Part shown: positions 1 to 1,399 of the stretch, piece after piece
Position numbering within the stretch: the stretch's first letter is position 1
How the letters are laid out: every line of letters starts with the position of its first letter
Assembly: GCA_964598765.1 (NCBI GenBank)
Contig: CAZRCZ010000008.1
Span: forward strand, 79,934-143,933
From: an uncultured Candidatus Sumerlaeota bacterium
GTDB lineage: Bacteria; Sumerlaeota; Sumerlaeia; MVZB01; JAJFLK01
Reading direction: 5' to 3'
DNA length: 64,000 nt
Notes under the pieces: generated by a model
What the model was told of the DNA's origin: nothing
The model's input: only the letters and a program-made list of their open reading frames with translations
Databases searched by the model: none
Position numbers and translations under genes: made by a program

Positions 1-1399
1 TCGGTTGGGACCCGACGGCATTGCCGACACGCTCGATGAAGAATTCAACCCCAATCATCCCGGAAGTCATCCCCACGGTGATTTCATGGCGCTCGATCAA
101 AACAACAATGGAATTCCGGATAGCTTTGAGGCTCTTGCCCAACAGCTTGGAGAGGAAGCAAACTACTGGTTCGGCGACAACCCAACCGATGTAGTGGACG
201 CTCTAAAATTCGACGCCAAAAACAATTACGGTGATCCGCAGGCTACTGGCTCCGCCGCAATAGCCGCCATGTGGGCGGCGGAGGCGTCGCCGGGCAACCC
301 GAACGAGGAAGGAAGCGAGGGAGCGCTTTCCGCGGCTCTTGCCGCGTCCCAAGAACTCCGAAAAGACTTGGCGGATATGATTGGGCCGCTTACAACGGGA
401 GCCAAGCTCTTTGGGAAGATTTTCACAACGGCCCTATTGGACGTTAATGTCGGCTTCGACCAGTCAGGCGGAACGACGGTTACCCTCAACACATTCAGCG
501 ATCCGCGTCTTGACACTGCCCAGGCGCACTACAAAGCCACCTTTGTGAACGGCGTGAACAACACGGGAAGCCAAGCCGTGCACGTCGGGAGTGAACTCAA
601 TAGGTCTTACCAGATTCCGGTAACCGTAATCTATAATCCGACTCATAATATCGCGTTTGATCTGATTGAATCTGCGGAACAATGGGGATATAACATATTA
701 GCGTGGTTTAATCCAAGCCAGATACTGACGAAGGCGGATCGTGACCTCTTCAACAAATGGATAGAAATTCTGGATGCGAACAAGGATGCTAACCACGTAA
801 TCCACTTTTGCCACAGCCAAGGCGGACTTATCACGGCACCAGCCCTCTGCCGTATCATGCTGTGGCACGCGACAAGTTGGGGTCAAAGAAAACATCGCAT
901 TCATCTTGTCGTGTTCGGTTCAGGTTACGCCTATCTCTTGTATAAGATTCTCCCTCAAGACAGTCATTTTGTTTATACGACGGGAGACATTGTCAACAAC
1001 TTTGCCGGCCTACGCTTTTTCAATCCTCTGAATCTCGCGGCAAAGCAACGAACCAAGCAATCGGAGATCATTTATGAACCTGCAGGATTGATTGCTCCAC
1101 ACGAATTTCACCCCTATGATACAGAAAGCCTTCCCAACACCTACGGGTGGTGGATTTATTACGACGGCGGACCCATTTGCATAAGTAGCTCAGGATCCTC
1201 AGGATCCATTCACGGTGACAAGCAATGGCTCCAGGATCACAACTCTCCTTCATGGCGCAATTACCTCAGCATCCATAAGGGCTACTCACTAGGATCACCC
1301 GGGAACGTTCCGGAGGGCTGGGTTGTGACGTATCCCGCTGATCCTGACACCCCAGCGGAGACATTCAATCCGCGGGAGGAAGCCACTTTACCGCCATGA
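1..1399 (+). CDS. Large polymorphic toxin, C-terminal portion (5'-partial; continues upstream of window); predicted C-terminal alpha/beta-hydrolase-like (lipase/esterase-like) toxin domain
   Basis: ORF 5..1399 is open to the window edge. About 70% of its residues match the C-terminal 480 aa of the downstream 1017-aa paralogue (2831..5884). It contains [15 protein letters not shown] (nt 809-826), a nucleophile-elbow-like motif. Its stop overlaps the next start as ATGA. Confidence 0.6.
   Translation, partial: RLGPDGIADTLDEEFNPNHPGSHPHGDFMALDQNNNGIPDSFEALAQQLGEEANYWFGDNPTDVVDALKFDAKNNYGDPQATGSAAIAAMWAAEASPGNPNEEGSEGALSAALAASQELRKDLADMIGPLTTGAKLFGKIFTTALLDVNVGFDQSGGTTVTLNTFSDPRLDTAQAHYKATFVNGVNNTGSQAVHVGSELNRSYQIPVTVIYNPTHNIAFDLIESAEQWGYNILAWFNPSQILTKADRDLFNKWIEILDANKDANHVIHFCHSQGGLITAPALCRIMLWHATSWGQRKHRIHLVVFGSGYAYLLYKILPQDSHFVYTTGDIVNNFAGLRFFNPLNLAAKQRTKQSEIIYEPAGLIAPHEFHPYDTESLPNTYGWWIYYDGGPICISSSGSSGSIHGDKQWLQDHNSPSWRNYLSIHKGYSLGSPGNVPEGWVVTYPADPDTPAETFNPREEATLPP

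Follow-up and report, generated by a model that had tools for sequence, protein, structure and literature searches.

What does a short motif, CHSQGG, that recurs in the C-terminal domains of two neighboring predicted toxins encode, on what would such a domain act, and what would protect the cell that makes it? The question is raised by a locus at the start of a 64,000-nucleotide stretch of contig CAZRCZ010000008.1 (GenBank assembly GCA_964598765.1, positions 79,934 to 143,933) from an uncultured Candidatus Sumerlaeota bacterium. We refer to this whole stretch as the window. The locus carries toxin A and toxin B, each directly followed by a gene for a tetratricopeptide repeat (TPR) protein. An earlier note on this DNA had read the motif as the nucleophile elbow of a lipase-type alpha/beta hydrolase. 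We find that the domain is very probably an alpha/beta serine hydrolase that uses Ser814 of toxin B as its nucleophile. It likely functions as a toxin domain whose producer is protected by the accompanying TPR lipoprotein.

Predicted fold and active site of the toxin C-terminal domain

Translation places CHSQGG in both toxins at exactly the positions given in the earlier note (Table 1), within a run of 15 identical residues. The accompanying claim, that the motif is identical although its surroundings have diverged, is true only in a weak sense. Toxin A and residues 537-1017 of toxin B are 62% identical over 460 aligned residues, a level at which a simulation yields an identical run of at least 15 residues with P ~0.12, and the non-catalytic linker also contains identical runs of 15 and 14 residues. 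Given this probability and the similarly long linker runs, conservation of the elbow run between the two copies is real yet unremarkable. The evidential weight of the motif comes instead from the family level, at which its Ser and first Gly are invariant.

A profile searched exhaustively against 1.84 billion cluster representatives matched 21 proteins, 12 of them with E < 1e-10. Most of the long matches are hit at the extreme C-terminus, and the proteins span 659-4169 aa. Repeats of the FG-GAP, fn3, Calx-beta and bacterial TSP3 types make up these carriers, with faint matches to BNR. All are annotated as hypothetical or repeat proteins, the clusters looked up have one or two members each, and one match derives from a Candidatus Sumerlaeota metagenome-assembled genome (MAG). 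The N-termini of the two largest complete relatives, P0005 and P0007, were read by eye and begin with Sec or lipoprotein leaders.

Conservation was assessed across 13 aligned domains, whose identity to toxin B is ~26-36%. Invariant positions, numbered along the modeled domain, are Ser104, Gly106, Leu114, Asp161 and Gly168, together with a block N-x-Y-x-W...G-G. Three His are near-invariant, one of them within an H-x-F motif. The FVNG motif is conserved in this close family (consensus TFxNG) and invariant in the more distant group described below. The window clade furthermore shares a conserved C-terminal extension of ~90 residues (NTYGWW..GGPxF..SIHGEK..W..NPRE).

The Cys that stands in place of the canonical first Gly of the elbow had been presented as a conserved feature, which the family does not bear out. 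This -2 position is Ala in most close relatives and Cys in both window copies and P0003, with Thr and Gly occurring once each; among the distant relatives, P0019 and P0021 also have Cys. The elbow of alpha/beta hydrolases is a sharp strand-turn-helix with small residues at -2 and +2 of the nucleophile (Sm-x-Nu-x-Sm). The family follows this pattern, with the Ser between a strand and a helix, Ser and the +2 Gly invariant, and Cys, Ala, Thr or Gly at -2. Judged from the alignment, the elbow Cys appears to be an ordinary small-residue variant demanded by the tight turn. We considered a special catalytic or redox role and rejected it because the position varies among these four residues within the family.

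A second Cys occurs in the extension, directly after GGPI, in both window toxins (Cys941, nt 5651-5653, in toxin B; nt 1178-1180 in toxin A) and in the fragment P0012. The other family members that have this block carry Phe at the position, and one fragment carries Leu. P0012 is the closest fragment relative of the window toxins and lacks the elbow region. A disulfide between the elbow Cys and the GGPI-C Cys, which co-occur in both window toxins, is conceivable.

AlphaFold prediction from the two window copies alone was unusable, with a predicted local distance difference test score (pLDDT) of 31. Supplied with the 13-sequence alignment, it returned a model of the toxin B domain with a pLDDT of 67 and a predicted template modeling score (pTM) of 0.77. 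The model begins with strand 6-12, which ends in FVNG, followed by a helix, strand 37-40 and two helices. Strand 96-103 then leads directly into Ser104 and helix 106-124, after which come strand 132-137, strand 153-158 and Asp161. Strand 186-189 is last and is followed by a long, low-confidence loop that holds PHEFHP. In the model, this succession of elbow, predicted acid and predicted His follows the canonical arrangement of alpha/beta hydrolases.

Foldseek comparison of the model with the PDB agreed with this assignment. All of the best 50 matches listed are alpha/beta-fold hydrolases (probability 0.89-1.0), including cutinases, Bacillus subtilis LipA, LysB, thioesterases of nonribosomal peptide synthetases, RavL and the lipase of P. 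glumae. The structure prediction and fold search that had been proposed as a check on the C-terminal domain of toxin B thus recovered the expected fold, and the Ser lies where a nucleophile elbow would place it. The predicted fold class is supported by both homology and fold prediction.

For the remaining residues of the triad, the earlier note had pointed to two conserved stretches downstream of the elbow, VVxFGSGYxY for the acid and PHEFHP for the His. The second proposal stands, as PHEFHP contains the best His candidate. The first has to be corrected: VVxFGSGYxY forms the strand that follows the helix of the elbow and lacks a conserved acidic residue, and the acid is better assigned to the invariant Asp of YT[ST]GD, which comes after the next strand. 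Asp161 lies three residues beyond strand 153-158, and the His of H-x-F follows strand 186-189. The model hence suggests Ser814, Asp871 and His914 as the catalytic triad of toxin B, with His914 preferred over His917 on the basis of the alignment. By analogy with the HG motif of lipases, the FVNG turn probably contributes the oxyanion hole.

The weaker matches of the profile search form a second, distant group, whose members include a Hahella protein and, from a Verrucomicrobia MAG, the C-terminal domain of an RHS-repeat protein. In the RHS-repeat protein P0017 (E 1e-4), a C-terminal domain with GAHSQGG lies just after an RHS core of the PxxxxDPxGL type. Invariant in the distant group are N-G, N-x-T, D..E, H-S-Q-G, D and H. 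In hhalign, the window clade aligned with five sequences of this group at 99.5% probability (E 3e-22); the match runs from the NG motif as far as the predicted catalytic Asp, and the Ser and Asp columns superpose.

A comparable string of motifs, namely NG, [DE], [KR], HSxG, D and H, is the printed signature of Tox-ABhydrolase-2, a polymorphic-toxin family that was defined by computational analysis (Zhang, de Souza, Anantharaman, Iyer, Aravind 2012, Biol Direct 7:18; PMC3482391). Both window copies have FVNG, D..E (as DIIES), HSQG, YTSGD (YTTGD in toxin A) and PHEF, and only about half of the window clade keeps the basic residue (R in KADRDLF). The window domain therefore appears to be a divergent, unannotated variant homologous to sequences with the Tox-ABhydrolase-2 signature, membership being judged from that signature as printed. 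A text search of the literature found no later paper under the name Tox-ABhydrolase-2.

Other searches yielded little. A word-indexed search of 5.8 billion proteins with the hydrolase domain alone matched nothing, and the same search with the 13-sequence profile recovered only P0010. In the PDB, neither the single domain nor the family profile nor the N-terminus of toxin B had a meaningful sequence match, and the distant-group profile gave insignificant matches to lipases at the elbow (E 0.17-1.4). Scans of genome contigs with the two-copy profile and of metagenome contigs returned nothing. One further locus (L002), picked up through a degenerate NTYGWW..GGP pattern in DNA, was discarded as a chance match with open reading frames (ORFs) unlike the toxin.

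The TPR partner and the evolution of the cassettes

A gene for a TPR protein of 430-500 aa lies directly downstream of the hydrolase gene, within a few bases, in nine pairs at seven loci. This count covers loci with upstream sequence and comprises two pairs in the window, two in the tandem array of L001 and one each at L003, L004, L005, L008 and L009; an orphan TPR gene at L007 is kept apart. L003 belongs to a Sumerlaeota MAG, and at L004 the TPR gene follows the gene of a 4169-aa giant. The TPR family is itself rare, with ~20 strong matches in 5.8 billion sequences. Downstream of the distant relative on the RHS protein lies instead a 144-aa ORF that Pfam does not recognize.

The TPR proteins had been taken for secreted proteins or lipoproteins, and their leaders agree with this. 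By eye and by hydropathy, all seven N-termini read have a hydrophobic stretch. Six of them have a Cys at one aligned column in a lipobox-like context, with Gly at -1 in five of those six, and the leader of the L004 protein ends in a canonical L-T-G-C. Across the window, L001, L003, L004 and L005, the last ~150 residues of the TPR proteins are 55-69% identical and the first two-thirds 18-32%, a contrast suggesting that the C-terminal half binds a constant partner.

The sequence features by which polymorphic toxins are generally recognized are all found here: a C-terminal domain on proteins of 659-4169 aa, tandem cassettes (in the window and at L001), conserved flanks around diverged cores, and an orphan TPR gene. 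The conserved gene linkage supports the predicted toxin/immunity architecture.

Immunity genes commonly occur as orphan copies. At L007 (10001-11290; ENA ERZ21831265), a lone TPR homolog lies among housekeeping genes with no toxin, and in this it behaves as an orphan immunity gene. At L009, an intact TPR gene (10001-11305) follows a toxin domain that is split in two pieces (8925-9637), amid transposases and integrases. L004 (GCA_021372575.1) encodes a type I-C-like CRISPR-Cas set of Cas3, Cas5d, Csd1 and Cas7 (22302-28510) directly downstream of the giant toxin/TPR pair.

Toxin B consists of a unique N-terminal part (residues 1-373), a pre-toxin region with TSP3-type, Asp-rich repeats (~374-700) and the hydrolase domain (~711-1017). 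The middle region matches the TSP3-repeat region of CglD (NCBIfam), and the N-terminal 373 residues (nt 2831-3949) are common to the truncated third copy. Between the C-termini of toxins A and B, synonymous sites are saturated and the nonsynonymous divergence (dN) is 0.31; both copies are therefore old and under purifying selection.

Conservation at the DNA level alternates along the array. Positions 1991-3488 and 6463-7954, each covering the 3' half of a TPR gene and the 5' end of the next toxin, are 89% identical. Identity is 68% at the 3' ends of the toxin genes, and blastn returned no alignment of the TPR 5' halves. Accordingly, the last 200 codons of the two window TPR genes are 87% identical with a synonymous divergence (dS) of 0.31, and their N-terminal parts are 49% identical with saturated dS. 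Such alternation, with conserved recombination flanks on either side of a variable core of toxin tip and immunity region, is the pattern seen in polymorphic toxin arrays. The low dS of the last 200 codons points to gene conversion across the two 89% identical segments.

Table 1. Features of the toxin/TPR locus and of the predicted active sites, in window positions
Feature	Position (nt)	Strand	Basis and remarks
Toxin A, C-terminal 464 codons (pre-toxin linker and hydrolase domain)	5..1399	+	ORF translation; 5' end outside window
TPR protein A, 477 aa, predicted immunity lipoprotein	1396..2829	+	TPR_12 E 3e-25; hydrophobic leader then Q-C-G-C; ATGA overlap with toxin A stop
Toxin B, 1017 aa, complete ORF	2831..5884	+	ATG 1 nt after TPR A stop; BLAST matches to C-termini of proteins of 659-4169 aa
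TPR protein B, 453 aa, predicted immunity lipoprotein	5934..7295	+	TPR_12 E 3e-25; leader then M-C-G-C
Third toxin copy, N-terminal fragment only, ~230 codons	7297..7992	+	Starts 1 nt after TPR B stop; toxin B homology stops at ~nt 7954
Transposase (integrase core, rve) adjoining third cassette	8167..9300	-	Pfam rve_3 E 4e-12, HTH_32
Hydrolase domain of toxin B, 307 residues modeled	4961..5881	+	AlphaFold, Foldseek, hhalign; family-specific C-terminal extension (NTYGWW..GGPIC..IHGEK) from ~nt 5609
Nucleophile elbow CHSQGG, toxin A	809..826	+	Predicted Ser codon nt 815-817
Predicted catalytic Asp, toxin A (YTTGD)	986..988	+	Aligned with invariant family Asp161
Predicted catalytic His, toxin A (first His of PHEFHP)	1100..1102	+	Near-invariant H-x-F motif
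N-G of FVNG, toxin B, probable oxyanion-hole region	4997..5002	+	End of model strand 6-12; role by analogy
Nucleophile elbow CHSQGG, toxin B	5264..5281	+	Ser814 codon nt 5270-5272; between strand and helix
Asp871, toxin B (YTSGD), predicted catalytic acid	5441..5443	+	Invariant 13/13; distant-group Asp aligned; 3 residues after model strand 153-158
His914, toxin B (first His of PHEFHP), predicted catalytic His	5570..5572	+	Near-invariant H-x-F; low-confidence model loop
His917, toxin B, alternative catalytic His	5579..5581	+	Spacing to downstream NTYGWW block ambiguous

Proposed mode of action, deployment and surroundings of the locus

From the motif, homology, fold class and gene linkage, which the analysis shows, we infer catalysis, substrate, toxicity, immunity and delivery route as follows. 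A compact hydrolase of ~300 residues would form the C-terminus of tandemly repeated toxin genes, represented in the window by two intact domains and one truncated N-terminal fragment. It would reach the envelope of competing bacteria and cleave an ester bond there, most likely in a membrane lipid. The TPR lipoprotein, facing the periplasm, would protect the producer, and the variable first two-thirds of this protein could restrict protection to the cognate toxin. It may be that a full-length carrier starts upstream of the window and ends in toxin A, and that toxin B and the truncated third copy are cassettes downstream of it. The strict pairing with a TPR lipoprotein argues for action in the cell envelope and would narrow the search for the target; that the two proteins are a toxin/immunity pair acting there is in our view probable.

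Several results weigh against this account. No curated model recognizes the domain at threshold: Pfam is blank for toxin B, NCBIfam, PADLOC and PDB sequence searches gave nothing relevant, and the DUF900 match of toxin A in Pfam stays below threshold (E 0.036, 13.9 bits against a cut-off of 20.5). The Foldseek E-values are weak (best 1.7e-3) with TM-scores of 0.2-0.49, and the loop with the predicted catalytic His has a pLDDT < 50. Residues 1-373 of toxin B have no counterpart in Pfam, the PDB or related toxins. Toxin B lacks a signal peptide, and none of the ORFs scanned across the 64 kb encodes a type V, type VI or type VII secretion system (T5SS, T6SS or T7SS). Finally, the conservation of the TPR C-terminus exceeds that of the toxin (~30%), which is unusual for a pure immunity protein.

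The prospects of a lipid substrate, which would make the domain a phospholipase, lipase or esterase, seem to us evenly balanced. Lipases and cutinases account for most of the best fold matches and of the sub-threshold sequence matches, and a periplasm-facing lipoprotein immunity protein mirrors the Tle/Tli lipase systems (PMC13133936). Neither point is decisive against the main alternative, possible if rather unlikely, that the same fold and triad belong to a serine esterase, peptidase or amidase acting on an envelope component other than a lipid. Candidates are peptidoglycan and the O-acetyl groups it carries, the acyl chains of lipoproteins, and proteins. The alpha/beta-hydrolase fold spans many activities, and the structural matches listed include thioesterase domains and LysB, a mycolyl-arabinogalactan esterase. 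The conserved extension of ~90 residues has no lipase counterpart. For Tox-ABhydrolase-2 itself, no specific relationship to characterized lipases was described and the catalytic target was called unclear (PMC3482391), a further point that counts against a lipid target here.

The domain might instead be a surface enzyme on adhesin-like giants, engaged in polymer or ester degradation or in self-processing, with the TPR lipoprotein as a partner in export, folding or anchoring. FG-GAP, fn3, Calx-beta and TSP3 carriers are indeed typical of surface adhesins, and the ORFs scanned in the window include no dedicated toxin-delivery genes nearby. The TPR C-terminal half is also far more conserved than the hydrolase, as would be the case if it bound a constant feature. 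We nevertheless regard this explanation as improbable, because several hallmarks of polymorphic toxin loci are present: tandem, diversified hydrolase/TPR cassettes with conserved recombination flanks, a TPR gene that stands as an orphan (L007), a degraded toxin that has kept its TPR gene (L009), and an RHS protein in which a homologous domain follows the core at the C-terminus.

Similarly little credence can be given to the window copies being orphan cassettes that are not deployed, that is, relics or a recombination reservoir without activity of their own. In favor of this reading, toxin B has no signal peptide, in contrast to the giants P0005 and P0007 (leaders read by eye), a transposase adjoins the truncated third copy, and the mid-sized P0001 and P0006 start inside a region that is internal in the giants. 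Against it, both hydrolase domains are intact and keep every invariant residue, dN is 0.31 against saturated dS, the genes are tightly coupled (an ATGA overlap and 1-nt gaps), and toxin A may end a full-length carrier outside the window.

Within the toxin/immunity reading, we also entertain, with considerable doubt, a more specific joint proposal. The locus would be a distinct module of uncultured diderm bacteria, in which a hydrolase derived from Tox-ABhydrolase-2 has gained the conserved ~90-residue extension, is displayed on Sec-exported FG-GAP/fn3/TSP3 surface giants and is delivered in a contact-dependent manner independent of T5SS, T6SS and T7SS. Control by the TPR lipoprotein would be bipartite: the variable N-terminal part would provide specificity, and the strongly conserved C-terminal 150 residues would dock on a constant feature, whether the extension of the toxin, its carrier or a component of the export machinery. 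Besides immunity, toxin maturation might then depend on the lipoprotein.

The remainder of the window was surveyed for context. No terminal inverted repeats were detected around the transposase that adjoins the third cassette, and a seeming resemblance of ORF 10052-11257 to the end of the third toxin was dropped, as it had no DNA-level support. A 2566-aa ORF (19686-27386) with FG-GAP_2, Calx-beta and Kelch repeats resembles the giant-toxin carriers and has no hydrolase domain; it lies in a stretch where GC content is raised up to 0.66 and GC skew is strongly negative. Two adjacent genes (29810-31672 and 31709-33475) encode secretin-domain proteins (E ~1e-23 to 1e-24), and no other secretion-system genes were recognized beside them. 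A nuclease with an ERCC4 domain and helix-hairpin-helix motifs (56682-57497) has an XPF/Mus81-like architecture that is, to our knowledge, uncommon in bacteria. A PADLOC scan of the window gave nothing relevant, promoter and terminator counts equaled the shuffled expectation, and no tRNAs were found.

The analysis provides a concrete predicted active site (Ser814, Asp871, His914) for a toxin clade that has no Pfam or NCBIfam model and ~20 representatives in 1.8 billion. It links this clade to Tox-ABhydrolase-2, a family predicted in 2012 with its substrate left open. The TPR pairing could furthermore offer a clean system for studying how repeat proteins confer toxin-specific immunity. The interest of the locus lies mainly in the rare clade, its extra C-terminal module and the bipartite TPR lipoprotein; the elbow Cys is unimportant.

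Comparison with lipases, type VI effectors and Tox-ABhydrolase-2

In overall fold, the modeled domain resembles solved alpha/beta hydrolases. B. subtilis LipA (1i6w/1t4m, AHSMG elbow) and Fusarium cutinase (1cus/1oxm, GYSQG elbow) match it best among the structures listed, with target-normalized TM-scores of 0.40-0.49. Both have the same strand-Ser-helix elbow, and LipA likewise has a small residue other than Gly at the first elbow position. The hhalign match to LipA is weak (probability 14.5%) yet in register, with Ser104 on the catalytic Ser77. The window domain differs from LipA and the cutinases in that it shares no significant sequence similarity with them and is ~120 residues longer, owing to insertions between strands and to the C-terminal extension.

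The resemblance to DUF676, PGAP1 and Lipase_3 that had been noticed at the elbow is borne out in the distant relatives. These give sub-threshold Pfam matches at this site to all three families and to DUF900; the DUF676 match, for example, scores 19.3 bits against a cut-off of 20.3. None of the matches reaches the gathering score, and toxin B matches none of the four families.

The lipase effectors of the T6SS offer a parallel at the level of the gene pair. Their immunity proteins bear lipoprotein or Sec signals, which has been read as a sign of periplasmic toxin action (PMC13133936). Like Tle1-Tle4 and their Tli partners, the window system combines a predicted alpha/beta-hydrolase toxin that has a G/A-x-S-x-G type elbow with an immunity gene directly downstream, whose product is exported or a lipoprotein, as the hydrophobic leader in all seven TPR partners read suggests. 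Unlike Tle1-Tle4, the window proteins have no Tle match in Pfam, and Tle3 appears below threshold on distant relatives (E 0.06-0.2). Moreover, VgrG, Hcp, PAAR and T6SS core genes are missing both from the window ORFs scanned and from L001 and L003-L005, and the predicted immunity fold here is a TPR.

The closest comparison is with Tox-ABhydrolase-2, which is spread over Proteobacteria, Chlamydiae, Verrucomicrobia and fungi, is carried by FilH or RHS proteins and is paired with Imm-SUKH immunity proteins (PMC3482391). The partner in the window is a TPR lipoprotein of 430-500 aa, not Imm-SUKH, and a TPR protein is what lies downstream in nine of nine pairs. The carriers of the window clade are FG-GAP/fn3/TSP3 giants, not FilH or RHS proteins. 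Its domain has its own His region and the ~90-residue extension, both outside the hhalign match, which ends after the catalytic Asp. Set against these differences, the window clade and Tox-ABhydrolase-2 share the same motif string and the C-terminal position on the toxin, and a distant homolog of the window domain is carried by an RHS protein.

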